A DNA stretch of 64,000 bases, taken from contig CALEIS010000135.1 in NCBI GenBank assembly GCA_937877675.1, forward strand, positions 173,557 through 237,556, read 5' to 3'. Positions 1,672-39,981 of this stretch are shown here, piece by piece (the stretch's first letter is position 1; every line of letters begins with the position of its first letter). Under the pieces are notes generated by a model. It saw only the letters and a program-made list of their open reading frames with translations. It was not told where the DNA came from and searched no databases. Origin of the DNA: an uncultured Clostridia bacterium. GTDB taxonomy: Bacteria > Bacillota > Clostridia > Oscillospirales > Acutalibacteraceae. Made by a program: the position numbers and the translations under genes.

Positions 1672-4600
1672 ATGTCTTGGATTAGTACAAATACTACTAC
1701 TGATAATAAAGTTTATCCTAAACAAATTTCACAGGATGTTCTCTCATTCTATCACGGATTCAGTAAGACTCCTGTAGAACCTGAAATCAAAAATGGTGCT
1801 GCAACTGGTTATGCTGCAACAACACTTGCGAATGCCACAACAAAGAGTGGTCACACCGTTCTTGGCTCGGAAGTTTGGGCATCTGAACTTCCTTGGTTCG
1901 GTTTCGCTCCTAACAAAGATGTTGCTTCAACTCGTGTTTCTGGGATAACAAATAAAAACGACCTTATCCGTATAAATGATGTCGGTAAAGATTACATTTA
2001 TATCGGTAAAGGTGGAGAAACATTCACCAAAGCTACTTGGGATACCGTTTGGAAAGAAATCACTCTTACAAATGGTATGGAATTGGCTAACCAATATGGT
2101 GATAAAGTTCTTCGTTATTATGAGAAACAGAGGATGCAAGCTCTTGAGAGTGATAACAATGCTGGTATTGACTCTAAGGGTTATGCAACTCGTCTCTTCG
2201 TTGACGAATCAACTCATACCGCTGTAACTACAGTAGGTCAAGGTTCTGTTATTCCCCAGTTTGCTGCTGCTACCGATAGTATCAAAAACGGTCTTACTTC
2301 CAGTATTTTGAATCCTGTCGTTTACATTGATGGAACACAGAAAGTACCAGGTACACACTTTTATGACTACAATGTTTCAGGAACAATCCTCTGGGACTCA
2401 AACGTAAAGAGTAAAAATGTTACCATCACCTGCTTCCGTTATATTGGTAAATCAGTAACTGCAAAAACTGCTGAAATTGAATCTACAATTGAAGACCTTA
2501 AAATTACAGCAGGTGCAGGTATTACCGTAACTGATGGAACGAAGCAGAAAAAAGGTATTACTACACTTACTCTTGGTGGTTCTAATGGTGTTACTGTAGC
2601 AGTAAATGAATCAACTGGTGCTGTAACATTTGGTGTCGATACTGCTACAATCGCTACAACTGCTTCTGTAACAGCTATTAGCGATAGAATTTCTGCTGCT
2701 GCTTCCGATATTACTGCAACTAGTGAGAAACTTGTAACAGGTAAGGCTGTTTATGATTATGTTTCTGGTGCTACTCTTAATAGCGGTACACAGGGTGATA
2801 ATCAGATTCAGAACGCTTCTGGTGATACTGCTAACAAGCTCGTAACGGCTGCTCAAGTCAAGGAGTATGTAACTGAGAATGCTCAGGTTACTGTAACAGT
2901 TGGTGAAACTGATGTAACTTCTACAGGATTTGAATTCGCAGGTTCTACTGGTAGTGATGTTTCCTTGTCTGCTGCAATGGATGCAAATGGTAAGGTAACT
3001 TACTCTGCTACTCTTACTAAGGCTACTGTTGGTACTGACGGTAAGATTCTTACAGGTGATGAAAACAAGGCTGTAAGCGCAACCGATGCTAAGACTATCG
3101 TTGATACGTCTATCGCCGCTCTTTCTGCTACTGGTGGTGCAATTGCTACTCTTACAGAACGTGTTGGTCAAGCCGAATCTAATGCTGCTGCTTCTGCTAG
3201 TGCTGCTTCTGCTTCTCAGACTGCTGCTGAAGGAGCAAAGTCCGAAGCTGCTGCTGCTAAGACCGCTGCTCAGAATGCCCAAACCGCTGCTGAGGGTGCT
3301 CAGTCCGCTGCTCAGGCTGCTCAGGCTGCTTCTGAAGCTGCTAAGGGTGAAGCTTCTGCATCTGCTACTGCTGCATCTCAATCTGCTACTGCTGCTCAAG
3401 GTTCTGCTACATCTGCATCTCAATCTGCTTCCGCTGCATCTGCATCTCAGACCGCTGCTGAAGCTGCTCAGAGTGCTGCTGAGAGTGCTGCTGCTGAAGC
3501 AAAGGCTGCTAAGGAGTTTGTTGAAGCTACCGCAGAATGGCAAGCTGGTTCTGATGAAGAACTTGGTAACTTTACTGATGCTTCTGCAAGTGGTGTTGTA
3601 ACAGGTACAACTGTTAAGACCGTTGCTGATGAGGTATTGGCTCTCGCTAAGTCTTACTCTAACGGTCTTCACACAACAAGCGTAACATATCATGTAACCG
3701 ATACACTCCCAACTGTTCCAGCAGGTGAGGAAGAGAAATATAAGGGTAGAATCTATCTTGTTCTCACAGGTCTTGATGGAGTAGTTGCCGCCGATGGCGA
3801 CCGCATTGAATACATGTACGTCCAAGAAAATGGCGTATGGGGTTGGGAACAAATTGGTACTACTACTGCTGACCTTTCTGGTTATGCTAAGTCTGTAAAG
3901 ATTAATAGTTCAACTTATGCTGCAAGTGCTGATAATTCAGGTGCTCTTGACCTTGGTACTGTTGTAACAGGTTTGTATAATACACTTCCTACTGGTGTTA
4001 CTAGTGTTACTGGTGTTAATCTTGTAAATGCCAATTCTGTATATGCAGGTATTAATAATGGCATAATGGAAATTGGTGTTGCTGACGCTTCTGCTGATGG
4101 TAAGGGTCTTGTACAACTCGCTGCTAATGTTGCAGATGGTTCTACAACAGACGTTACTACTGCTAAGGCTGTAAAGGATTATGCTCAAAAGGCTCTTACT
4201 GTCAAGGATGGTCGTGGTTACAATGTAACAGAAAATGACTTGTGGGGTACTACTGCAACATTGGATGAAAATGGTAATCTTACCGTTGCTCATAATTGGG
4301 TAACTAATCCTAATGCTTCTAATAGTGTTGCTTGGAATACCTCAATTACTAAAGTTGAAGATAATGGGGCTTATACTTCTTCTAGCTCAATTGTGAACAT
4401 TCAAACTGACATGATAAAAAATGGTCAGTATATGTTCAAAGACTGTTCTGAACTTACCTCATTCTCCTCTGACATGCCTAATTTGACGAATGGTGATAGT
4501 ATGTTCCAAGACTGTTCCCATCTCACCTCATTCTCCTCTGACGTATCAAGATTGACTACGGGTTATAGTATGTTCTATCATTGTAGTGCTCTCACCGCAT

Positions 4601-7130: not shown

Positions 7131-7520
7131 CTAACCACCATGCCAAAAAGAATTAATTTCTTGTTTTTTACTTTTCAATTCAATACTTTTGACATCTTTT
7201 TCTGCCAACACGAAAGTATCAGTACGAACATCATTAGAAGGCATTAGTTCAATAAGTTTCTCAAGGAAAGTATTGAGACTAAAGTTTACAGCAGAAGTCC
7301 AACCACTGAGATTATCGAAACATCTAATCTCAAGGGAAGCTCCTTGTAATCCATAAGGTTCATCTGATTGATAACATGCCCCTTTTTCACCTGTAGGATA
7401 ACCAGGGTCAATTGTAATTTTTACACCACATTGTGCATACGTATCTTTAGGAGCTTTGTGCAACTCTAAGTGCCACAATCCTCTTGCTGCGTCATAAGTA
7501 AAAGGTTTATTAAAATCCAT
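7131..7520 (-). CDS. hypothetical protein; ends at TAG, in frame with 6405..7121
   Basis: 129-aa ORF. Its stop (7131-7133) is TAG. The same frame continues (..HGG*LSDMENIC..) into the glycosyltransferase ORF, so a 371-aa readthrough fusion is possible. Confidence 0.55.
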   Translation of the reverse strand: MDFNKPFTYDAARGLWHLELHKAPKDTYAQCGVKITIDPGYPTGEKGACYQSDEPYGLQGASLEIRCFDNLSGWTSAVNFSLNTFLEKLIELMPSNDVRTDTFVLAEKDVKSIELKSKKQEINSFWHGG

Positions 7521-7525
7521 AATTT

Positions 7526-7792
7526 TTATAATCTTGTAAAGTCTTTGTAATACATCTTATCATCTTCTGTCATATCCCAATCGTCCATGAAAGTCCAATG
7601 GGTACTTCTGACCATTCCTCCTGCGAATTCAACGGTCATTACACCCTTGTCAATACGAATGTCAATATCTTCATCGTCATCATAATCATCAGCATAAATT
7701 CTTCGATTATTGATAACAATCATCGTAGCTCTAAACGTATCAACAGGCTTAGAACTTTCAAAGCTATGGTCTGTAATTGTAAAGTAATCCAT
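7526..7792 (-). CDS. hypothetical acidic protein
   Basis: C-terminal part of track ORF 7526..8131, starting at MDYFTITDH. The upstream part overlaps the plus-strand gene and looks spurious. A TATAAT box lies 9 nt upstream of the ATG. Confidence 0.5.
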   Translation of the reverse strand: MDYFTITDHSFESSKPVDTFRATMIVINNRRIYADDYDDDEDIDIRIDKGVMTVEFAGGMVRSTHWTFMDDWDMTEDDKMYYKDFTRL

Positions 7793-20614: not shown

Positions 20615-20804
20615 AAATGTGTTTTGTTTAAGTTGCTTAAGAATAACCCTCATGAGCGTAGTTCCCATGAGGGGGGTTAGGGTACTTCCCTAACGGATTA
20701 CTAATAACTCCGCAATTTCACTTACGAAGTAGTGAAACTCCGCATTCATTGTTACTGTTCATGACCAGTAGAATGTTGAAGCCCAAGTATAACCTAGTTT
20801 TGTC

Positions 20805-20878
20805 AGTTATGGTGAGAATTGAACTCACGACTTTCCTACGCATCACCGTATTCAGTTCTACCACTGAACTACATAACT
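20805..20878 (-). tRNA. tRNA-like gene with non-canonical anticodon arm
   Basis: Good acceptor (agttatg/cataact), D arm (gttc/gaac) and T arm (gtgag-ttcaatt-ctcac). The anticodon region folds only as tacg-gtgatg-cgta, a 6- or 8-nt loop. Confidence 0.35.
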
Positions 20879-22521: not shown

Positions 22522-22719
22522 TCAAGCTAGAAGTTTCAAGAAAAATGCTAAACCGTAACAGATGTAGATTTTATAATGAAGTGATTTCATTGACTCTTCT
22601 ATTTCATCAGGGGAAACACCAAACTCTTCAATAAGTCTGTCAGTGCTTTTCCACGTTCTCCATAGAAGGAATGTGAGCAATAGACCTATACCGATTAGTA
22701 TGTATGCTATTGTTATCAT
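22522..22719 (-). CDS. small membrane protein
   Basis: 65 aa with an N-terminal TM helix. It overlaps the stop of the HNH gene. Confidence 0.45.
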   Translation of the reverse strand: MITIAYILIGIGLLLTFLLWRTWKSTDRLIEEFGVSPDEIEESMKSLHYKIYICYGLAFFLKLLA

Positions 22720-23477
22720 TTTATGTTATATTTTTCTTTCCACTTTCTAACTGCATTATCAGATACTTTGAAATGTCTGCCCAATGCCAACATAGATTTG
22801 TGAATTTTCATCGCTTCTCGTAATTCTTCCTCACTTGGTATGTTTCTTGCGTTCCAATTATCATAACATTTTCTACAACAAAATCTTTTCTGTTTAGTAG
22901 AAGATAACTGTTTGTTACATACTTCACAAAAACGTGGTTCTGCTTCAACTGTTACTTTTTTCTCCCTTGGTTTTCTCACAGGTTTTTCAATAGTTGGTGT
23001 AATCTTCTTTACAACTTTTGCTTTTTCCTTATGAGAAATTGTATTTGCACCTCTGTAATGTTCTGTTAATGCGTGACAATTAGGACAAACAATCTGTAAG
23101 TTCTCAAATGAGTTATCCAAACGATTGCCGTTCTTATGATGTAGTTCAAGTGGTATCTCTACACCTTGCCACTCTTTCAAGCCACATACTTCACATACTT
23201 TTTCTTTAAGATTGAATTGGAAAATTCGTCTTTTGAGATGATAACTTGATAACATTTTTTCACCTCTAAAAACTTTTTCCAAATCTTCCCTAGTAAAAGA
23301 TTGACTTGAAACTTTTTTACATCCCCTTCCCCCTTGATTTGGTTGAAAACACCCATACTTTTTAGCAAGGCGTGCAAATGCGTTATACGAAATTCCTAAC
23401 GAACCTGCTGCACCTGTTATAGTTTTTCTTTCTTCAAGTGCTTCTCGTATTATGTTTTCTTCTATATCGTATGCCAT
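22716..23477 (-). CDS. HNH homing endonuclease with N-terminal HTH
   Basis: ELHHKNGNRLDNSFENLQIVCPNCHALT, plus a second C-terminal CxxC/HTH region. Confidence 0.8.
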   Translation of the reverse strand: MAYDIEENIIREALEERKTITGAAGSLGISYNAFARLAKKYGCFQPNQGGRGCKKVSSQSFTREDLEKVFRGEKMLSSYHLKRRIFQFNLKEKVCEVCGLKEWQGVEIPLELHHKNGNRLDNSFENLQIVCPNCHALTEHYRGANTISHKEKAKVVKKITPTIEKPVRKPREKKVTVEAEPRFCEVCNKQLSSTKQKRFCCRKCYDNWNARNIPSEEELREAMKIHKSMLALGRHFKVSDNAVRKWKEKYNIK

Positions 23478-26358: not shown

Positions 26359-26387
26359 AAAATACACTAATCTGTAATTCAAGTCAA
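26359..26387 (-). promoter_or_regulatory. TTGACT-N17-TATTTT promoter cassette (degenerate copy)
   Basis: Same cassette context (caagtcaagactttttt) as the other copies. Confidence 0.45.
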
Positions 26388-27262
26388 GACTTTTTTACAA
26401 AATATTGAGAAAAATCTTTCACACAATTTACATCAACCATGTGACATTGACATTCGTAACCATCCATAGGAGTGATAGTGAATTCCAAGTTCTTATGATA
26501 ATGTCCCATGAACCAATGTTTAGGAGTAAGATAGCAAGCCATGTCTGTCAATTCCTCTTGTTCCCTGGCCAGGTCATTCTTCAATTCCTTATCCATCACT
26601 AGGAACTTATCACAGTTACTATTGAATACAATACCGTTGGGAATAGGGCCTGTGTGTCCAATAATGAAATCAAACTGATAAGAATTCTTATAATTATCCC
26701 AAGGGTCAATGTAATCAAAACTTGCCCAATAGTTCTGACCTTCCTTCATCAACATTCTGTTCAAGGAAATTGCACCACCAAATACAAAACCTCTATAACC
26801 TCTGTATTCAATAATTCCCTTGTTCATAGGGAAGATGGTAGTGAAATGTAAGGCATAGTATTCTTGTGTATGATAATAAGCACAATCATGATTACCTCTG
26901 ATAAAGTATGCTATGCAGTTTCGCTCCCTAAAAAGATTATCAAGTTTACGGTATTGTCTCCATGAATCATCATAGAGCATTACTTGGTCTCCAAGCATAA
27001 TGAAAACACAATCACGATAATCATTTTCGAGAAGTTCCTCTTTGAAGCGTTTGTAGTTACCATGCAAGTCTCCAACTAAGAAGATTTGCTTATCGTCAGG
27101 GATTGTGTATGTCAAGATATAATTATTTACATTATAAGCATCATTTATACCTACAATGTCAAACTCATCAACACTAATACAAGGTTTGGGTAACTCCTCT
27201 AAAGGAATTACCTTACCCAAGTGTTGCAAATCTCTCTTATAACTGTTCCAATCTATTAACAT
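26384..27262 (-). CDS. calcineurin-like metallophosphoesterase
   Basis: Motifs GDLHGN, GDQ, GNHD and GHYH. Confidence 0.75.
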   Translation of the reverse strand: MLIDWNSYKRDLQHLGKVIPLEELPKPCISVDEFDIVGINDAYNVNNYILTYTIPDDKQIFLVGDLHGNYKRFKEELLENDYRDCVFIMLGDQVMLYDDSWRQYRKLDNLFRERNCIAYFIRGNHDCAYYHTQEYYALHFTTIFPMNKGIIEYRGYRGFVFGGAISLNRMLMKEGQNYWASFDYIDPWDNYKNSYQFDFIIGHTGPIPNGIVFNSNCDKFLVMDKELKNDLAREQEELTDMACYLTPKHWFMGHYHKNLEFTITPMDGYECQCHMVDVNCVKDFSQYFVKKS

Positions 27263-28999: not shown

Positions 29000-29084
29000 C
29001 GGGTGCAGAGGGACTCGAACCCCCAAGGGCATCCCTGCCCCAGCAATTTTCAAGATTGTGTCTTCATCCAGCCAGATTACACCC
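29000..29084 (-). tRNA. tRNA-Ser(UGA)
   Basis: Type II. Loop cttgaaa. Long variable arm ctggggcagggatgcccttg. Confidence 0.75.
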
Positions 29085-29203
29085 TTTTTTCCTACCAACT
29101 GTTGTCAATAGGGGAACATTTTCTCCGTCACGGCTAAAACAGTTCCATTAAAGTCCGCATGATAGTTATCATGATTATAAGAGAAATAATTTCTCAAACC
29201 TAG

Positions 29204-29293
29204 CGGGTGGTGGAGGATTTGAACCTCCGAACCGTATTAACTACGATTAAAGTCTTAGCAGGACTCCGCATTCAGCCACTCTGCCAACCACCC
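29204..29293 (-). tRNA. tRNA-Ser(GCU)
   Basis: Type II. gggtggt/accaccc. Anticodon arm gagtc-ctgctaa-gactt. Confidence 0.8.
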
Positions 29294-29299
29294 GAATTC

Positions 29300-29386
29300 A
29301 AGACACAAGCGGTGGATTTGAACCACCTTTAATTTATGTAGTTGCAGTACATTATATTATCCATTTAGATTTGCTGTAAGTGTCTT
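29300..29386 (-). ncRNA. ACAGCAAAU-box RNA 1 (tRNA-like: anticodon-type hairpin + T arm, closed by 7-bp helix)
   Basis: aagacac-tt-ACAGCAAATCTAA...atgta-ctgcaac-tacat...ggtgg-ttcaaat-ccacc-gctt-gtgtctt. It starts 5 nt after tRNA-Asp. Confidence 0.55.
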
Positions 29387-29391
29387 TTGAA

Positions 29392-29465
29392 CGAAGACGA
29401 AGGGGCTTGAACCCTCAACCTCAGCCGTGACAGGGCTGCGCTCTAACCAATTGAGCTACGCCTCC
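29392..29465 (-). tRNA. tRNA-Asp(GUC)
   Basis: Anticodon arm cagcc-ctgtcac-ggctg. Canonical D and T arms. Confidence 0.8.
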
Positions 29466-29471
29466 AATAAC

Positions 29472-29577
29472 AAGGCTCTTTCACTAATGAGATAACCAAC
29501 TTCTCTATATTTTCAACCGAAAACAATTGGACTTGAACCAATGAACTTTAGCTATGCTAATTTGCTGTATGAGCCTT
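29472..29577 (-). ncRNA. ACAGCAAAU-box RNA 2: circularly permuted tRNA mimic (YrlA/Y-RNA-like)
   Basis: Order is: aaggctc-at-ACAGCAAA; hairpin ttagc-ata-gctaa; agttc; T arm attgg-ttcaagt-ccaat; acceptor-like hairpin tgttttc-ggtt-gaaaata; ta; D arm gaga-agttggtta-tctc; ...gagcctt. Confidence 0.6.
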
Positions 29578-29582
29578 TAGAA

Positions 29583-29655
29583 TGGAGCTGACAGGAATCG
29601 AACCTGCTACCCTCTGCGTGCAAAGCAGATGCTCTACCAAATGAGCTACAACCCC
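29583..29655 (-). tRNA. tRNA-Ala(UGC)
   Basis: G3:U70 is present. Anticodon arm tctgc-tttgcac-gcaga. Confidence 0.85.
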
Positions 29656-29807
29656 AAAATTAGGAACAACCCCCATTATTTAGGGGGCTGCACCTTTTTA
29701 TAAACAAACAAAACACGAACCACAATCATCAACACAATGACTATGGTGTTCCCATCGTTTCACAACGAGAGGTAAGGAGAGGGGGACTACCCCCTCTCTA
29801 AGATTAT

Positions 29808-31340
29808 TTAGTCAACAAGCGTAATGTCAGCATAACGCTTACCATTAAGAACCTGTAACATGAAGTCAGCAGGAGTCTTACCTGAGAGAATTTGCTCAAA
29901 CATACCAGGCTTACAACCACCAACAAGAATTGCACCGTACTGATGCTGAGTTACAGGAAGATTACCGTAATCACGCTGAGCTGCATTCCAGAATACCAAC
30001 TTAGGTACTCGATACCCTGCACAAGAATACATAGTTCTGATACGGTCATATGCTGCTTCATTATTACCACCATATACACAAGCATCAAACTGCATATCAG
30101 AGATAATCACGATTGCTTCAGGCATCTCCTCAGCAGGAAGATTATGTCTCTTTGCTGCATTGAGTACCAACTCAAAGGTAGCAATTAGATTTGTAGAACC
30201 ACCCCAATCAGCAGAAGCAATGTGCTGTACCTTCTTCTTAAGTCCCCACTTGTCATCAAATTCAATGAGATGAGGATTAGACTCAAATGTAATGAACTTA
30301 TTCTTGAACACTCCCTTGTTATGCTCAGACACATACATACCAAGTGAGATTGCTACACCAATAGGCTTAGGATTATCACCCCAAGTCATTGAACCTGAAG
30401 TATCTACTACTGCAAGCCAATTCTTATGTGCTGCATCTCCAAAGTAATCAGGGAGAGAACGCCACATGTTGTCAAGCTGCTTTTCCTCAGTCTTACCTAC
30501 AGAATAGTCAAAGAACTTATTGACAATCTCATAAGGATAGAGAGTCTTGACATTCACCTTTGCCTCCTTGCAGTTTACATCTCCACGCTCAATAGCCTTG
30601 GAAACTGCATCAATGTGAGCACGATAACGCTCACCGTCCTTCTCATGGAAGCACTTACGATACTTCATGTTGGCGTTAGAAGGAACTTCGTTATAGTCAA
30701 AGGTGTAATCCTTGTTCGTAAGATAAGTCTCAAGAATGTTGATACGCTTACGAAGCATGGAAAGCGTCTTACGGTAATGCTTTTCTGTTACTCCCAACTC
30801 CTTGCACAACATCTTACCATAAAGGCGAGTGCGCTTAGAAGAAGCATTTACGGAAGGAAGCCACTTAGCCATAATTGAGATAGGCTTATCAGACTTATAG
30901 TTAGTAATGTCTGACTTCAACTGTTCAACTATGAACTGAATAATCTGCTTGTCAAGGTCATCATGAACTCCAAACAAACAGAACAAATCATCCCATCGAC
31001 CATAAGTGGGAATGTGAGAGATGATGTTAGAGTTAATAAATGTCTTAGGCTCAAGTGTGGCTACCTCATGGATACCCTTGCGGAATACCTCACGCTCACC
31101 CTGTCCACCGTTGCCACGAACATCACGAAGATAGAACAAACAACGAACTGTGGACAACTTGTCCTCTAACCATGCACTCCTTACCATAGTACGAATCCCA
31201 TTAGGATTCTTACGATAAGAAGCACCCTTAGCGAATAAATCGAGAACTGAATTCAACGTAGACTTCCAAGCAGCCATGCCGTTTGTAGTCTCAGTCAAAT
31301 TATCCGTCTCCTTGATTGCATCAAATAATGCGTTTCCCAT
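29808..31340 (-). CDS. Ro60-like protein: DUF2828-type helical domain + C-terminal vWA with MIDAS
   Basis: The N-terminus TETTNGMAAWKSTLNSVLDLF...LFYLRDVRGNGGQGERE matches my recollection of DUF2828. The C-terminus has VVDTSGSM (DxSxS MIDAS). This is the same two-domain layout as Ro60/Rsr. Confidence 0.6.
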   Translation of the reverse strand: MGNALFDAIKETDNLTETTNGMAAWKSTLNSVLDLFAKGASYRKNPNGIRTMVRSAWLEDKLSTVRCLFYLRDVRGNGGQGEREVFRKGIHEVATLEPKTFINSNIISHIPTYGRWDDLFCLFGVHDDLDKQIIQFIVEQLKSDITNYKSDKPISIMAKWLPSVNASSKRTRLYGKMLCKELGVTEKHYRKTLSMLRKRINILETYLTNKDYTFDYNEVPSNANMKYRKCFHEKDGERYRAHIDAVSKAIERGDVNCKEAKVNVKTLYPYEIVNKFFDYSVGKTEEKQLDNMWRSLPDYFGDAAHKNWLAVVDTSGSMTWGDNPKPIGVAISLGMYVSEHNKGVFKNKFITFESNPHLIEFDDKWGLKKKVQHIASADWGGSTNLIATFELVLNAAKRHNLPAEEMPEAIVIISDMQFDACVYGGNNEAAYDRIRTMYSCAGYRVPKLVFWNAAQRDYGNLPVTQHQYGAILVGGCKPGMFEQILSGKTPADFMLQVLNGKRYADITLVD

Positions 31341-31376
31341 AATTATTCTTTCTATGTTTATTATTGATAAAAATGG

Positions 31377-31521
31377 TCAATTCATTCGCCCTTGTCAGGA
31401 TAACTCTTCATATTTGAACAAGTCACTTTTTCTCCACGTTTTATAACCCAAATATAATGTGATTAGATTTGCTGTATGTGACTTTTATTAGGAATTACCC
31501 TAACAAGGATGAATGAATTAA
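31377..31521 (-). ncRNA. ACAGCAAAU-box RNA 3: long 27-bp stem enclosing a 7-bp helix, box and Pro-like anticodon hairpin
   Basis: Outer arms 31377-31403 and 31495-31521. Four of the five non-identical columns are G:U pairs only in the minus-strand RNA. Inner element 31420-31484: aagtcac-at-ACAGCAAATCTAA..ttata-tttgggt-tataa..gtgactt. It lies in the 5' leader of the Ro-like gene. Confidence 0.55.
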
Positions 31522-31522
31522 C

Positions 31523-31660
31523 AAGACCCCATTATTACATTTTTACTGCGCTCTACCAACTGAGCTACTCCCATCATTGCAACAGGAGGCAGGACTCGAA
31601 CCTGCGACATCAGGCTTACAAGGCATATGTTATAATTGATTGATTTGCTGTGTGGGTCTT
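31523..31660 (-). ncRNA. ACAGCAAAU-box RNA 4: circularly permuted tRNA mimic (YrlA/Y-RNA-like)
   Basis: Order is: aagaccc-ac-ACAGCAAATCAA..; hairpin tatgc-cttgtaa-gcctg; atgtc; T arm gcagg-ttcgagt-cctgc; acceptor-like hairpin ctcctgt-tgcaatg-atgggag; ta; D arm gctc-agttggta-gagc; ...gggtctt. Confidence 0.6.
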
Positions 31661-31666
31661 TAAGAA

Positions 31667-31749
31667 TGGGAGCGGTTGGACTCGAACCAACGAAGACCGA
31701 AGTCAGGAGATTTACAGTCTCCCCCCTTTGCCGCTCGGGACACACTCCC
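31667..31749 (-). tRNA. tRNA-Tyr(GUA)
   Basis: Type II. Anticodon arm ggaga-ctgtaaa-tctcc. Confidence 0.8.
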
Positions 31750-31993
31750 AAGTTTGTAACTATCCCTCACCACAGGGAGAACCGTTTCATAAGTTCTTTA
31801 TCCTAGTTACTGAAGATTTAGATTACATCGTACATAGAAGTTTGACGTGGATGTAATCATCCCAATGAGTATGTTCCTTACTTGCCCCCTCATCGGTTAC
31901 TGGGGCGACTGCTCTTTATACATTATCAGGGGAAAGCAGAAAATCCTTTACTGATAAGGGATGAGTTGGTGGTGTCCTACTCATCACAGGAGA

Positions 31994-32065
31994 CAAGGCA
32001 TAGGGGAATTGAACCCCTGTTTAGGGAATGAAAATCCCTTGTCCTAACCACTAGACGAATGCCTC
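31994..32065 (-). tRNA. tRNA-Glu(UUC)
   Basis: gaggcat-tc-gtct-agtggtta-ggac. Anticodon arm aggga-ttttcat-tccct. 4-nt variable loop. Confidence 0.8.
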
Positions 32066-32141
32066 ATGTGTTTTTAACATCGCTGTCAATCTTCATTAGA
32101 GGGTTTTTATTTCCTCTTCACCTTTGGCAGGTGACAAGAAC

Positions 32142-32170
32142 ATTATACATCAGTTCTTTTCTTTTGTCAA
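32142..32170 (-). promoter_or_regulatory. TTGACA-N17-TATAAT promoter cassette
   Basis: attata at 32142-47 and tgtcaa at 32165-70. Confidence 0.7.
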
Positions 32171-32209
32171 GCACTTTTTGAAAGTTTTTTGAACTTTTTT
32201 CTTGAAAAA

Positions 32210-32281
32210 CACTCCATGCGGGATTTGAACCCACCTTCACGATTTTAGAGACCGTTGTCCTAACCACTAGACGAATGGAGC
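32210..32281 (-). tRNA. amber suppressor tRNA (anticodon CUA)
   Basis: gctccat-tc-gtct-agtggtta-ggac-a-acggt-CTCTAAA-atcgt-gaag-gtggg-ttcaaat-cccgc-atggagt-g. Canonical 7-nt loop with U33 and CUA at positions 34-36 (plus-strand tag at 32246-48). Confidence 0.8.
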
Positions 32282-32288
32282 ATGAAAG

Positions 32289-32362
32289 TAGCGGGGATAG
32301 GACTCGAACCTATGACTCCACGAATATGAATCGTGTGTTCTAACCAACTGAACTACCCAGCC
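32289..32362 (-). tRNA. tRNA-Met or Ile2 (CAU)
   Basis: Anticodon arm cacga-ttcatat-tcgtg. One U:C mismatch in the acceptor stem. Confidence 0.7.
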
Positions 32363-32509
32363 ATTTTGATACCGATAACGTGTTTCTCATTACACCATAC
32401 CCACGACCGTTTAGTACGTACTCTAAGTCTTGACAGGCACAGGGAATCTCACCCCAAACATCACCGATACTAGCAGAAATTTTGCGCTAAGGATTTCTGC
32501 AAACCTTAA

Positions 32510-32581
32510 TCAGGGAGGCGAGACTCGAACTCGCAACCACTTGAACCCAAATCAAGCACTCTACCATTGAGCTACACCCTG
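32510..32581 (-). tRNA. tRNA-Pro(UGG)
   Basis: C1:G72. Anticodon arm cttga-tttgggt-tcaag. Confidence 0.75.
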
Positions 32582-33023
32582 AACTGAGGTTCTCACTACC
32601 ACTCGGAGAACACCTAAGTCTGTACACAACCTAGGTACATTATGCTTCATTACTCATAATGAAACGCTTTTGAGCATGTGTGACTCTTGCACAGGTAGCA
32701 CGTTGTCTACCTCGTTTTATAAGACGATGCACATCTTCGTCTCCGTAGATACACATTTATTATCTTCGCACCTGTATCTCATTATCTAAGCCTGATAATG
32801 CCAATCATGAACTTTTGATTGCTATCGTACACCCTATTCAGGTGAGGACTTGGTGCAGCATCTCATGTTTAACTTCCATGAGAAGAATGATAGTTTTACT
32901 ACTGCTATACTATCCAAACAGGGAAGCTCAGGTATTGCCTACCAAGGTTACTTCTTACTGCGAACCTCATAAACAGTCTACTTAGTATGATGAGTGCTTA
33001 TCTCTCATCTTTCATAAGTGGAG

Positions 33024-33095
33024 TAGCCCCTGACAGACTCGAACTGCCGACCAATTCGGTGTAAACGAACCGCTCTACCACTGAGCTAAAGGGCC
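33024..33095 (-). tRNA. tRNA-Val(UAC)
   Basis: Anticodon arm gttcg-tttacac-cgaat. Confidence 0.8.
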
Positions 33096-33128
33096 GTATG
33101 TTGTAGTATTTATCCTCGCAACAAGTAT

Positions 33129-33157
33129 ATTATATCATAGTTCTTTTTACTTGGCAA
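33129..33157 (-). promoter_or_regulatory. TTGCCA-N17-TATAAT promoter cassette
   Basis: attata at 33129-34 and tggcaa at 33152-57. Confidence 0.65.
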
Positions 33158-33189
33158 GATTTTTTTCGTATATTTGTTTAGTTTTTTAC

Positions 33190-33261
33190 AAGACACCTTC
33201 AATCTAACCCTAGAATGACAATACTTTAGTCGGTGTAAATTTGATTTGCTGTATGTGCCTT
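33190..33261 (-). ncRNA. ACAGCAAAU-box RNA 5 (72 nt, 7-bp closing helix)
   Basis: aaggcac-at-ACAGCAAATCAAA....gtgtctt. It starts 5 nt after tRNA-Ile. The interior fold is unresolved. Confidence 0.45.
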
Positions 33262-33266
33262 TAGAA

Positions 33267-33340
<74 letters not shown>

Positions 33341-33422: not shown

Positions 33423-33899
33423 TTATAATTTATTGACATCAAGTAATCCATAATGAGCTTCTCTATGACAGTTTGCACATAAAAGAACACATTTGGATAC
33501 TTCATCATTTATAGTATCCATTGAAAGTTGACCAAGTTTTGCTATATTCAATTCAAAACTTTTTTCATCAGGGTTTTTATGATGAAATTCCAATGCTTGA
33601 GGACAACGGTTGTAACCACATGCCATACATTTACCGCCAAACTTGGTATCAATTATTTGTTGTTTGCGTTCTCTTGCACGATTACGATTACTTACAGTTA
33701 TTCGCTTATTTCTTTTTTTACGAAGAAATTCTTTTTCTTCCTCCGTATAATCTTTTACATTGAAAGGTCTATATTTAGTTTTCAATCCATATTTTCCTAA
33801 CCAATGACGAACCGAACTAAAACTTTTATCAAGTTCTTTACAGATGTCACGGATAGAAAGATTCTTGTCAATTAGTTTTTGTAATTCTTCTCGTTCCAT
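33423..33899 (-). CDS. HNH homing endonuclease with N-terminal HTH
   Basis: LEFHHKNPDEKSFELN...LLCANCHREAHYG. Confidence 0.8.
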   Translation of the reverse strand: MEREELQKLIDKNLSIRDICKELDKSFSSVRHWLGKYGLKTKYRPFNVKDYTEEEKEFLRKKRNKRITVSNRNRARERKQQIIDTKFGGKCMACGYNRCPQALEFHHKNPDEKSFELNIAKLGQLSMDTINDEVSKCVLLCANCHREAHYGLLDVNKL

Positions 33900-37833: not shown

Positions 37834-39981
37834 TTAGGCGTTATGATTCCAAACAGAACCTTCAGCAGGAGTTACTGTTACAGCAGTAGGAGCAGTAACC
37901 TGTACAGCAGGGCTGATTGGGAATGCATAGGAAGGAGCAGTACCAGTGGTTTCTGCATGAGCAGCATAACCGTTAGGATACATCTTATTGTCGTTCTGAA
38001 CACCAGGGTTGGAGAAGTCGTCAATAAGGATTACATGGTAGTAGAGGTGAGAACCGAAGATATTGTCCATTACACCGTAACGAGTCATAAGACCTACGTG
38101 TGGTGAGAAGGAGTTAGTATCGGTTGCAGTCTGAACCATGATAGGAATGTATGGGCAGTAAATGATACCTGCATCATACGTATCAGCACCCTTATAACCA
38201 AGCATACAATAGTTAGGAAGTTTAACTTCCTGCTCAGTTGTGTCGAACATATCGCCATAACCCATACCGTAGTCATCAGTGCTGTAAACGGCAGTTCTCT
38301 CATCAATGTAAACATTGAACTTGTTACCACCAAGAGTACCAGCAGCAGCGGTCTGAGCATTGTTAAGCTCGATGGTGTTGTTTACCTGCATAGGAACATA
38401 GTCCTCAAGCATCTGAAGAAGAGCAGCAACGTCAGGAGTACATACGATGAAGTTAGCAGCACCACGGTGGTTGCGAACACGCATTCTCATAGCCATCTTG
38501 ATAATGAACTGATAGAATGCACGAGCACGCTCACCCATCCAACGAGCGTCAGCGAGCTTACCAGACCATACAGACCATTCATTGTGCTTGAGAGCTGTGA
38601 AGAGCATACGAACAGTCATTTCACGGTCGATTTCAGCCTGAAGCTCATAGCTCATCTGCTGAGTAGCTTCGGTGTCGATGTCAATACCGTTGGTGTTCTT
38701 GAGGTCTTCCTGAGTTTCAAGTGTCCAAGAGGTTGAAAGTCTACGAGTACCAGCTTCAACAGCCTGCTTCTCGAAACCGAAGGAGGTACGAGCGATAGCA
38801 CCAGTAGCTTCAAAAGCATGAACGCGAGCAGCGATACCAGTATCCTCAAGACGGAACTGCCAACGACCACCTGCAAGAGGCTGGAGGAGTTGCTTGTCCT
38901 GAGCACCTGTGAAGCGGGTATCAAGACGCTGATAACCCATTTCAGAGTTACCCAAGTCCCACTTACCAGTTACTTCATTGAACTTGATGTCAGAAATCTG
39001 AACGTCACCCTTAGCAGGGTCAGAGATACCAACAATCTTAGTACCATCTGTAGCATCCTCTACACGCTTTTCAGCAGCAGTCTAAATTTTGTCAAGAAGT
39101 TCTGTCTCGGATGAATCAACACCACGCTGAGCAGCAACAACAACAGCTTCCTTAATCTTGGCTTCTGTGATGGTTGTAAGTGTAGCATAATCAACTTCAC
39201 CAATAATCTGTGTAAGAACAGGGTGAACGATGTACTTCTTATTCTTTTCAGAAGCAGCCTTTGTACTTACGAAAGCAGGGTTTGCAACGATTGCAGGGAA
39301 ACTCTGTGGGAAACCATTACCAACAACAGTTACAAGAGTAGCACTACCTTCGGCTGTTGAAGTAGCGTCAGTAATAGTAAGCTTAGCCTTGGTCTCTACA
39401 CCACGGATACCCTGAGCGGTATACTCAGTAGCAGCAGAACCATTGTATACAGTATCACGCTGAGCATATTCAGTTGTTTCACCAGAAACACGAGGACTGT
39501 GAACGTGCTCTGTGGAGCTGTCACCAAGAGCGTTAGCACCCTTGAGGTAACGATAACGGATAGCGAATGCAAGAGCTACAGGGCCAGGCATAGGCTGAAC
39601 ACCAACCGTTTCATTGCTCATAAGAGCAGGATAGATACGGCGAACCATAGGAAGAATAGTCGTTGGGTTACGCATGTCACCAGGAGCATAGAAGTCACTG
39701 TTGCCAAGCTCACCACCGTGAAGACCATTCTGAGGACCGAACATAGCGGTTGTCATTGCAGGACTGTTCTCATTGAGCCAACGCATCTGGTTCTCAAGAA
39801 GCATAGCGGTGTTGTTACGAACAGCCTTGGAGCGAATAGGAGCGAAACCAGCAGTACACTCAAGAAGCTCAGACCAGTTCTTTACTGCCTTGCGAGTACG
39901 CTGACCATTTTTCTGCGTCTGGGTAAGGCGAGCCTTAGGAGCAGCCTGTGCAGTACGCTTTGTTTTAGTAATAATAGCCAT
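37834..39981 (-). CDS. major capsid protein, T4 gp23-like, with one in-frame TAG
   Basis: Track ORFs 39082..39981 and 37834..38955 share a frame. They are joined through TAG 39082-84 with no other stop (..ELLDKI*TAAEKRVED..). The N-terminal part has gp23-type motifs LLENQ..WL, PMVRRIYPALMSNETVGVQPMPGPVALAFAIRY. Confidence 0.75.

Follow-up and report, generated by a model that had tools for sequence, protein, structure and literature searches.

What are the two RNAs that appear among the transfer RNA (tRNA) genes of an uncultured phage with the 3' parts of a tRNA placed ahead of its 5' parts, and how do they relate to the three smaller RNAs and the one protein gene around them? The DNA concerned, called the window below, is a stretch of 64,000 nucleotides (nt) from contig CALEIS010000135.1. 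It is part of an uncultured tailed phage, with genes for a major head protein, a head protease, an anaerobic ribonucleotide reductase and DNA methyltransferases, and it holds 29 tRNA genes, every one on the minus strand. When the region was compared with deposited phages by megablast, the tRNA segments were the sole matches, so the phage itself is absent from that deposited collection. Five small RNAs (A to E), all on the minus strand, flank a Ro60-like gene of 510 codons on the same strand. We consider that B and D are probably the tRNA-like members of a set of five phage RNAs resembling Y RNAs, the set being partners of the Ro60-fold protein encoded between them. An earlier sequence-only reading of this DNA had described B and D as tRNA mimics and overlooked the Ro-like gene, which is key to the interpretation. 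Each of the five RNAs consists of a common end structure, the handle, and an interior that differs between them, the payload:

33190-33261, minus strand: RNA A, handle with its box at 33252-33244 and a short payload whose fold was not resolved
31523-31660, minus strand: RNA B, handle and a complete permuted tRNA-like body
31420-31484, minus strand: RNA C, handle with its box at 31475-31467 and an anticodon-stem-loop mimic
29808-31340, minus strand: gene of the Ro60-fold protein, 510 amino acids, presumed partner of the RNAs
29472-29577, minus strand: RNA D, handle and a YrlA-like permuted tRNA body with no anticodon loop
29300-29386, minus strand: RNA E, handle with its box at 29377-29369, a hairpin and a T arm

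The handle is made of a box and a closing helix. The 9-mer box ACAGCAAAT (ACAGCAAAU in RNA letters) is present in five copies, all on the minus strand and all within 4 kb (29369 to 33252), against 1.03 copies expected, and none of 100 shuffles reached five. Exact matching matters here: with one mismatch allowed, two of the seven matches in the window are spurious, and with two mismatches the matches are mostly noise (about 35 spurious ones in the window). In every copy a 7-nt AAGNCNC ends 2 nt ahead of the box, and its complement GNGNCUU, with a G behind it, closes the RNA. The closing helix has 7 base pairs (bp) in all five RNAs, and its positions 4 and 6 vary compensatorily among the copies. 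With lengths of 65 to 138 nt, paired ends, the box 2 nt past the 5' strand and an A-rich strand opposite, the five RNAs have the shape of Y RNAs in the broad sense: 60 to 140 nt, 5' and 3' ends paired, and a conserved motif with an internal loop beside the end helix. Rfam at gathering thresholds matched only tRNAs in the window, and permissive scans of the window gave A, C, D and E no family, which means that Rfam 15 holds no family for the handle. The box is also close to the window's tRNA-Cys, as had been remarked earlier, since ACUGCAAAUC in that tRNA differs from it by one base. To find further members, viral contigs were scanned with the 15-nt handle pattern AAAGNCNCNNACAGCAAAT: 72 of the 125 exact matches have a perfect closing helix within 260 nt. 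This is the strict count, whereas a looser count of 350 "handle RNAs" contains false positives; further handle RNAs were taken from a second viral scan and from loci anchored on the protein. Across the family, the core of the handle is CAGCAA.

Inside the handles of B and D, the layout that the sequence-only reading had laid out was found again in full on the minus strand: closing helix, box, linker, T arm, closed 7-bp hairpin, UA, D arm with GG and return strand. Read from the sequence, the elements of RNA B are:

31660-31654, minus strand: 5' strand of the closing helix, AAGACCC, then AC
31651-31643, minus strand: box, ACAGCAAAU, then a 37-nt linker
within the RNA, minus strand: second helix, UUAUAACAU/AUGUAAUAA
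31624-31614, minus strand: mini-hairpin GC-CUUGUAA-GC with a tRNA-Thr-type anticodon loop
31605-31589, minus strand: T arm GCAGG-UUCGAGU-CCUGC
31588-31568, minus strand: closed acceptor hairpin CUCCUGU-UGCAAUG-AUGGGAG, then UA at 31567-31566
31565-31550, minus strand: D arm GCUC-AGUUGGUA-GAGC, then a 20-nt linker, with CAG (tRNA positions 27-29) past G26
31529-31523, minus strand: 3' strand of the closing helix, GGGUCUU

and those of RNA D:

29577-29571, minus strand: 5' strand of the closing helix, AAGGCUC, then AU
29568-29560, minus strand: box, ACAGCAAAU, then a 17-nt linker holding GCUAA (tRNA positions 39-43) and AGUUC (44-48)
29542-29526, minus strand: T arm AUUGG-UUCAAGU-CCAAU
29525-29508, minus strand: acceptor hairpin UGUUUUC-GGUU-GAAAAUA, then UA at 29507-29506
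29505-29489, minus strand: D arm GAGA-AGUUGGUUA-UCUC, then a 10-nt linker with A26 and UUAGU (27-31)
29478-29472, minus strand: 3' strand of the closing helix, GAGCCUU

Both RNAs have U8, A14, G18G19, a UUCRA T loop and Y48. The minimum-free-energy fold (RNAfold) of B yields the T, acceptor and D arms, and that of D yields the T arm and the acceptor hairpin, not the D arm. In a permissive scan, B aligned to the whole of the Rfam model of YrlA (RF02553) with 43.9 bits and E 2.4e-7. Its orthologues in related phages (loci L355-L363) show a compensatory change in the T stem, from GCAGG/CCUGC to GCAAG/CUUGC. The orthologues of D are nearly identical and D alone yields no covariation; its D arm, as well as the choice between a local hairpin (UAGC-AUA-GCUA) and a two-strand stem, rest on family-level evidence. 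Our own covariance model (R1) gave 52.3 bits to B and 42.7 bits to D, far more than anything else in the window, where tRNA-tRNA junctions reached 26.9 bits at most. These values are to be read with the knowledge that B and D were among its training sequences and that its weak matches, of up to 33 bits, are junctions between neighbouring tRNAs, so that it is not a clean detector.

The place at which the cloverleaf is opened differs between the two RNAs and from the one first proposed, between positions 26 and 27, which proved inaccurate. RNA D keeps the anticodon-stem equivalent as two strands, GCUAA and UUAGU (5 bp), and like YrlA has no anticodon loop. In RNA B the break falls at about positions 29/30, inside the anticodon stem's 5' strand, and an anticodon-like loop is retained. 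This 7-nt loop is closed by just two to three local pairs, and the stem is continued by CAG (27-29) after the D arm, which pairs with CUG (41-43). The split arrangement is conserved in the orthologues of B and a local 5-bp hairpin is not. Of the "hairpin in the anticodon-arm position" that had been assigned to B, the loop therefore stands and the full local arm does not: only two of its local pairs are conserved, and the 3' segment completes the stem. The halves of both RNAs resemble halves of the phage's own tRNAs: the 5' part of B is similar to the 3' half of tRNA-Arg(UCU) (31/38 positions) and its 3' part to the 5' half of tRNA-Asp, while the D arm of D equals that of tRNA-Met at 20/21 positions. 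They look tRNA-derived, which fits the dimeric-tRNA origin proposed for YrlA. A tmRNA, including a two-piece permuted one, was considered as well and rejected: neither ARAGORN nor Rfam called one in the window.

Does this layout fold as a tRNA-like body? The family of handle RNAs provided the answer. Among 226 unique RNAs from other phages, selected by the handle alone, 25 have the full plan (T arm, 7-bp closed hairpin, 2 nt, D arm with GG), compared with a mean of 0.04 and a maximum of 1 when the payloads were shuffled 200 times. In an alignment of 39 such modules, 90% of the cells are paired, against about 40% when the partners are slid, and both-sided changes occur in 21 of the 22 pairs. 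For this alignment (A3) the acceptor and D loops were cut to a fixed length; it replaced a plain MAFFT alignment (A2), in which the differing loop lengths had split the 5' strand of the acceptor. The T, acceptor and D stems were demanded by the parser, and their pair counts are thus partly circular; the Levitt pair 15:48 and the anticodon-stem equivalent were not demanded. The pair 15:48 switches as in tRNA: the 44 parsed modules have G:C in 21 cases, A:U in 20 and another combination in 3 (in the 39-row alignment, C:G 18, U:A 18, other 3). The anticodon-stem-equivalent pairs 27:43, 28:42 and 29:41 are paired in 69 to 79% of the modules, with many compensatory changes. This covariation, including that of 15:48 and of the anticodon-stem pairs, is strong evidence, drawn from comparing sequences, for an L-shaped tRNA-like fold. 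The central idea of the sequence-only reading, that of a tRNA mimic permuted circularly as in YrlA, is supported by the YrlA match of B, the covarying stems, the switch at 15:48 and the proximity of the Ro60-fold gene.

Topologies vary among the modules: some are of the D type, with a two-strand stem and no loop, some of the B type, with a split stem and a loop, and others carry a whole anticodon arm after the D arm. In seven of 46 modules (including those of loci L010, L155, L210, L003, L164 and L043) the acceptor loop opens with NCCA, for example GCCAU or ACCAU, as if a tRNA 3' end with its encoded CCA had been fused to the 5' end of the next tRNA; B and D do not have it.

The shorter members of the set keep parts of this plan, as had been anticipated, C being an anticodon-type hairpin and E a hairpin followed by a T arm without acceptor or D arm:

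31456-31442, minus strand: hairpin of RNA C, UAUA-UUUGGGU-UAUA, its loop equal to that of the window's tRNA-Pro
29351-29337, minus strand: hairpin of RNA E, UGUA-CUGCAAC-UACA
29327-29311, minus strand: T arm of RNA E, GGUGG-UUCAAAU-CCACC

The two identities noticed earlier are exact: among the window's tRNAs, tRNA-Pro has the anticodon loop UUUGGGU and tRNA-Thr has CUUGUAA, the loop displayed by B. Orthologues of C exist at loci L355, L356 and L362. At L362 the position orthologous to RNA A is occupied by another payload, with two anticodon-type hairpins. Over the whole family, 123 anticodon-type 7-nt loops were counted in the payloads (82 without T loops) against about 25 in shuffles, a comparison that is suggestive only, given AT-rich sequences and a loose definition of the loop; the types seen are Lys-UUU, Ile-GAU, Arg-UCU, Thr-UGU and Pro-UGG. 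In two related phages, an insert of about 30 nt that forms a hairpin, CGAGUAUCUCAUACGAGGUAUUCAAAAUCUAA, stands directly past the box of B-type and E-type RNAs (L355 3655-3820, L357 6038-6148); it looks like a small cassette moved between handle RNAs.

The nature of the protein had to be established by structure more than by sequence. The only sizeable open reading frame amid the five RNAs runs from 31340 to 29808 on their strand. Pfam finds in its 510-amino-acid product DUF7788 (4.5e-43), DUF2828 (2.7e-25) and a weak VWA_2, and PHROG 850, "RNA-binding protein", matches it at 7e-120. NCBIfam and PADLOC searches of the protein gave nothing useful, and in the literature DUF2828 led only to unrelated papers on plants and animals. 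An AlphaFold model (33 homologues) reached a predicted local distance difference test value of 81 and a predicted template modelling score of 0.72. Compared with the PDB by Foldseek, its 12 best matches were all Ro60, from the Thermus phage phiLo, Xenopus and human, over the full length (520-600 columns, E 7e-8 to 1e-5, template modelling (TM) score 0.36-0.52), and the structural matches to vWA/MIDAS proteins were restricted to the C-terminal part of the model. As modelled, the protein is a Ro60 fold, with a helical-repeat ring and a vWA domain, and it is non-TROVE by sequence. At least 709 deposited phage genomes encode a homologue. Felixounavirus/Bas63 and P100-like Listeria phages belong to this number, and so do cluster L mycobacteriophages, whose homologues carry the annotation "Ro-like RNA binding protein".

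Several genomic comparisons tie the handle to this gene. RNAs B, C and D lie within 80 to 250 nt of it on the same strand, which is the genomic signature of Y RNAs, and relatives with 64 to 87% protein identity have the same RNAs in the same order round the gene. In position and strand they agree with YrlA, for which a TROVE-type Ro60 gene is expected on the same strand within about 4 kb, while the gene here encodes the Ro60 fold and no TROVE domain. The 15-nt handle pattern was also sought in bacterial genomes, where most of the 120 loci that fit it are chance matches and eight had the closing helix. The gene was found within the 8-kb locus at six of these eight, against none of the 112 pattern loci without helix; the other two helix-bearing loci are evident chance matches, with a spacing of about 180 nt in GC-rich DNA. 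Two scans of viral contigs, whose flanks are short, gave the gene at 33 of 66 and at 14 of 37 handle loci.

Three cultured phages show the same handle geometry (7-bp helix, 2 nt, CAGCAA core, G past the return strand) beside a homologous gene. The Escherichia coli phage Bas63 (Felixounavirus) has four handle RNAs in a tRNA array just past gp130 (MZ501086.1 82072-82138, 82239-82296, 82694-82761 and 82781-82906), one of them with T arm, closed acceptor hairpin and D arm. In mycobacteriophage LeBron there are three directly past gp53, in a stretch without annotated tRNA genes (NC_014461.1 40203-40256, 40270-40391 and 40405-40450), the middle one scoring 39.8 bits with YrlA, and the Listeria phage LP-064 (Pecentumvirus) has three directly before the gene (NC_041862.1 35002-34947, 34915-34860 and 34846-34741). 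Two of these lineages have been studied. The Ro60-like gp130 of Bas63 is required against the ppl defence, and the authors guessed that nearby "tRNAs" might be Y RNAs, which they did not identify (PMC11482910). In the Listeria phage CKA15, the homologue was found in virions, and the 2 kb upstream of it hold the unannotated regions with the highest transcription; here too the authors suggested that these might be Y RNAs, without identifying them (PMC12282133). In LP-064 (L366), just upstream of the three handle RNAs, positions 3462-4013 match the ROOL RNA with 87.4 bits (E 2e-16), under the gathering score of 99.1, and this may be the most transcribed unannotated region of CKA15. RtcB-like and RNA ligase genes are found downstream near the Listeria Ro-like locus. 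In Bas63 (L364, MZ501086.1), two short hypothetical coding sequences, bas63_0137 and bas63_0138, are drawn on the opposite strand at 7334-7546, where they overlap or adjoin handle RNAs that include one with a permuted tRNA-like body; they are probably mis-annotations.

A number of observations weigh against taking the five RNAs for Y-RNA-like partners of this protein. On the RNA side, the 43.9 bits of B are under the YrlA gathering score of 69, D is unmatched by the YrlA model even at E up to 10, the GNCGAA motif of YrlA is absent from the 5' region of B and D, where ACAGCAAAU stands instead, and the folding energies of A, B and C are no better than those of shuffles (E has a z of -2.65). On the protein side, Pfam finds no TROVE (PF05731), phmmer and profile hmmsearch against PDB sequences found no Ro60, and the structural match is moderate (TM about 0.5, root-mean-square deviation 9-10 Å). 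About half of the handle loci on viral contigs show no gene in the available DNA, the flanks being short. Finally, 12 handle RNAs enclose, between the box and the return strand, a complete non-permuted tRNA called by ARAGORN, which could mean that the handle is a mark of tRNA precursors and not of stable ribonucleoprotein RNAs. The enclosed tRNAs include Ile-GAU, Lys-UUU, Thr-UGU, Phe-GAA and a suppressor with anticodon UUA (loci such as L065, L073, L096, L160, L164 and L268).

How could such RNAs arise and act? Each starts 3 to 5 nt past one tRNA and ends a few nt ahead of the next, and strong sigma-70-type promoter matches, by consensus only, stand upstream of the blocks of tRNAs and RNAs. 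The features that bear on this are:

33267-33340, minus strand: tRNA-Ile, precedes RNA A
32142-32170, minus strand: sigma-70-type promoter match, perfect TTGACA-17-TATAAT by consensus match only, upstream of the block of tRNA, RNA B, RNA C and Ro-like gene
31666-31750, minus strand: tRNA-Tyr, precedes RNA B
29776-29799, minus strand: GC-rich palindromic hairpin resembling a terminator by consensus match only, directly past the stop codon of the Ro-like gene
29582-29656, minus strand: tRNA-Ala, its 3' end 4 nt upstream of RNA D
29391-29466, minus strand: tRNA-Asp, between RNAs D and E
29203-29293, minus strand: tRNA-Ser, after RNA E

The nearness of the RNA ends to tRNA ends, together with the promoter matches, makes release by tRNA processing enzymes plausible. 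The RNAs would be transcribed within the phage tRNA operons and be set free by the processing of the flanking tRNAs, RNase P cutting at the 5' end of the next tRNA and 3'-end processing trimming the preceding one. By analogy with the conserved stem and the GNCGAA or GGUCCGA motif that serve Ro60 on YrlA and on animal Y RNAs, the 7-bp end helix and the single-stranded CAGCAA of ACAGCAAAU, 2 to 3 nt past the 5' strand and opposite the A-rich strand, may be where the ring protein docks. The payload is exchangeable: B and D offer an L-shaped tRNA body whose acceptor end is closed, to which B adds a tRNA-Thr-type anticodon loop, and C, E and many relatives display just an anticodon-type hairpin or a T arm. 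Again by analogy, the payload could be the effector module that tethers or sequesters on the Ro-like ring a factor which recognises tRNA. This factor might be PNPase, as in the Deinococcus and phiLo complexes, or another exoribonuclease; it might also be an enzyme that processes or repairs tRNAs, or a host defence nuclease that targets them. In favour of the last of these speak the loosely tested enrichment of anticodon loops and the loops displayed by B and C, which are those of the phage's tRNA-Thr and tRNA-Pro.

A wider proposal is, on the present evidence, doubtful: phages with a DUF2828-type Ro60 paralogue would carry hitherto unnoticed and very widespread handle-tagged RNAs, of which CAGCAA docks on the ring and the cargo displays parts of particular tRNAs (anticodon loops of the Lys, Arg, Thr, Pro or Ile type, T arms, permuted tRNAs in full or ordinary ones), as a library of decoys or adaptors by which host immunity directed at tRNAs, and RNA decay, are neutralised or redirected. 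If true, such a programmable library would explain why gp130 of Bas63 is required against a defence system.

Four other explanations compete with the one preferred here. Some other factor might read the handle, for instance an RNase involved in processing, one of the HNH endonucleases encoded in the array or a protein of the host, the Ro-like gene being near only through the shared neighbourhood of tRNAs; HNH genes are indeed dispersed in the array and the ends of the handle coincide with tRNA processing sites. We hold this to be unlikely, as the gene accompanies six of the eight true handles and none of the 112 pattern-only loci, the RNAs abut the gene in Bas63, LeBron and LP-064, and Ro60 proteins are encoded beside their Y RNAs (PMC4201824). 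There is an equally small chance that the RNAs are free decoys or sponges for host nucleases that target tRNAs or for tRNA-modifying enzymes, acting independently of the Ro-like protein, as the enriched anticodon-type loops and the identity of the B and C loops with the phage's own might suggest; the conserved handle would then have no role, many payloads, such as D, have no anticodon-type loop, and the enrichment comes from the loose test on AT-rich sequences.

Debris left by duplication or recombination in the tRNA array, with the box as a repeated spacer, would account for the tRNA-like halves of B (Arg, 31/38, and Asp) and of D (Met, 20/21) and for their location in the spacers between tRNAs. 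This is very improbable: the geometry of the handle and CAGCAA are kept in phages of Gram-negative, Gram-positive and actinobacterial hosts with covarying helix bases, the stems and the 15:48 pair covary, and the RNAs of LeBron follow the gene in a stretch without annotated tRNA genes.

The weakest explanation is that of true permuted or split tRNA genes, in which the acceptor loop would be opened by RNase P and 3' trimming and the handle removed to give a working tRNA: the 3' half does stand ahead of the 5' half, the acceptor stem has exactly 7 bp, NCCA starts the acceptor loop in 7/46 modules, ordinary tRNAs lie inside 12 handles, an anticodon loop persists in B and the YrlA of Mycobacterium smegmatis is cut by RNase P and gains CCA (PMC4201824), and still the chance is slighter than for debris, given that D and many relatives have no anticodon loop, that C and E are fragments only, that the anticodon stem of B is interrupted and its anticodon UGU duplicates that of the phage's normal tRNA-Thr, that the loops of B and D have no CCA, and that such genes would leave unexplained why the handle is conserved and linked to the Ro-like gene. 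A functional permuted tRNA gene was rejected for both RNAs, D having no anticodon loop, the stem of B being split over two segments and neither being called by ARAGORN. It also counts against such genes that, to our knowledge, bacteria have no splicing endonuclease for such precursors.

Further features of the array and of the phage were noted along the way. HNH endonuclease genes are scattered through the tRNA array, at 33423-33899 (minus strand) and 22716-23477 (minus strand) of the window, and in the related phage L359 one lies directly upstream of the B-type RNA. ARAGORN missed two tRNA-like genes: one at 29001-29084 (minus strand), with a long variable arm and a CUUGAAA anticodon loop of the Ser-UGA type, which scores 36.7 bits against the Rfam tRNA-Sec model, and one at 20804-20878 (minus strand), with a tRNA match of 47.9 bits. 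The gene of the major head protein (37834-39981, minus strand) is one frame of 716 codons with a single in-frame TAG at 39082-39084, in the context GAC AAA ATT TAG ACT, and the phage has a tRNA with anticodon CUA at 32209-32282 (minus strand); together they suggest recoding or suppression of amber codons in late genes. A metallophosphoesterase/phosphohydrolase gene lies a few kb from the Ro-like gene in the window (26384-27262, minus strand), in LeBron (L365 566-1654) and in the Listeria phage (L366 7111-7542), and may be a coincidence or a member of a set that processes RNA ends.

What would follow if B and D are, as we think probable, tRNA-like members of a Y-RNA-like set? Ro60 and Y RNAs are conserved from bacteria to humans, Ro60 is a major lupus autoantigen, and the factors that Y RNAs recruit have been identified in very few systems. 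A distant Ro60 paralogue, present in at least 709 phage genomes, gains candidate partner RNAs that are defined by sequence. For the RNAs that the Bas63 and CKA15 papers had guessed, the 7-bp helix and CAGCAA give exact coordinates in tractable phages. The modular payloads made of tRNA parts suggest a tie to the contest between phages and bacteria over tRNAs, and errors of annotation are indicated where small opposite-strand reading frames are drawn over handle RNAs in Bas63.

It remains to place the five RNAs among known systems, starting from the most remote. Species 1 and species 2 of phage T4 are small stable RNAs co-transcribed with tRNAs and released by tRNA processing enzymes, and in this they are similar to the RNAs described here; we know neither of a motif common to both nor of a Ro-like protein encoded by T4. 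The permuted tRNA genes of Cyanidioschyzon merolae and the split tRNAs of Nanoarchaeum are matured to working tRNAs by a splicing endonuclease and a ligase. They too encode the 3' half of the tRNA ahead of the 5' half, with a helix of flanking sequences joining the halves; in contrast, anticodon loops or entire arms are missing from many phage members, in which the handle itself is what is conserved. The work on YrlA mentions permuted tRNAs of algae and archaea (bioRxiv 10.1101/312249).

The likeness is closer with the animal Y RNAs and with Yrn1 of Deinococcus radiodurans, in which paired ends and an adjacent motif bind the Ro60 ring and the remainder recruits an effector, PNPase in Deinococcus. 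The motif is a different one, animal Y RNAs have no tRNA-like body, and the T and D elements of Yrn1 are ordered differently. Ro60 with adjacent YrlA or Yrl RNAs has been described in bacteria and phages (PMC4201824, PMC12135203). Among these, the Thermus phage phiLo encodes a Ro60-fold protein with at least two small RNAs beside it, Yrl1 and Yrl2 (PMC12135203; PDB 9KOP, 9L5Y), and this protein is the best structural match of the one in the window. It differs in being Ro60 by sequence, with 13-14% identity to the window protein in the structural alignment, and in having RNAs with a CGAA motif.

The nearest relative is YrlA, the bacterial tRNA-like Y RNA bound by Rsr/Ro60 (Chen et al. 2014, PMC4201824; Wang et al. 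2018, bioRxiv 10.1101/312249), which in Salmonella Typhimurium has no anticodon loop and for which the dimeric-tRNA origin was proposed (bioRxiv 10.1101/312249). The phage RNAs share with it the order of T arm, closed acceptor-like hairpin, UA and D arm, the conserved elbow nucleotides with a covarying 15:48, RNA ends that form a stem, a location beside a Ro60-fold gene on the same strand, several paralogous RNAs per locus and a plausible origin from tRNA halves. They differ from it in the handle, CAGCAA 2 to 3 nt past a 7-bp helix in place of GNCGAAN0-1G, the proposed Rsr-binding site; in the partner, DUF2828/DUF7788 and non-TROVE by sequence; in scores under the gathering value (43.9 for B and 39.8 for the LeBron RNA against 69 bits, D being undetected); and in the anticodon-like loop kept by B and many relatives, the highly variable topology of the payload and the location within phage tRNA arrays. 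The CAGCAA handle was not described in the searchable literature, and LeBron-type RNAs may have been listed before (Chen et al. 2014 or reviews). B and D thus have the structure of YrlA, lie below its gathering score, lack its GNCGAA motif and neighbour a protein that is Ro60 by fold and non-TROVE by sequence. Together, these comparisons seem to define a class of Y RNAs with a handle of its own, tied to a DUF2828 paralogue of Ro60, in an RNA-protein pairing that is apparently new.

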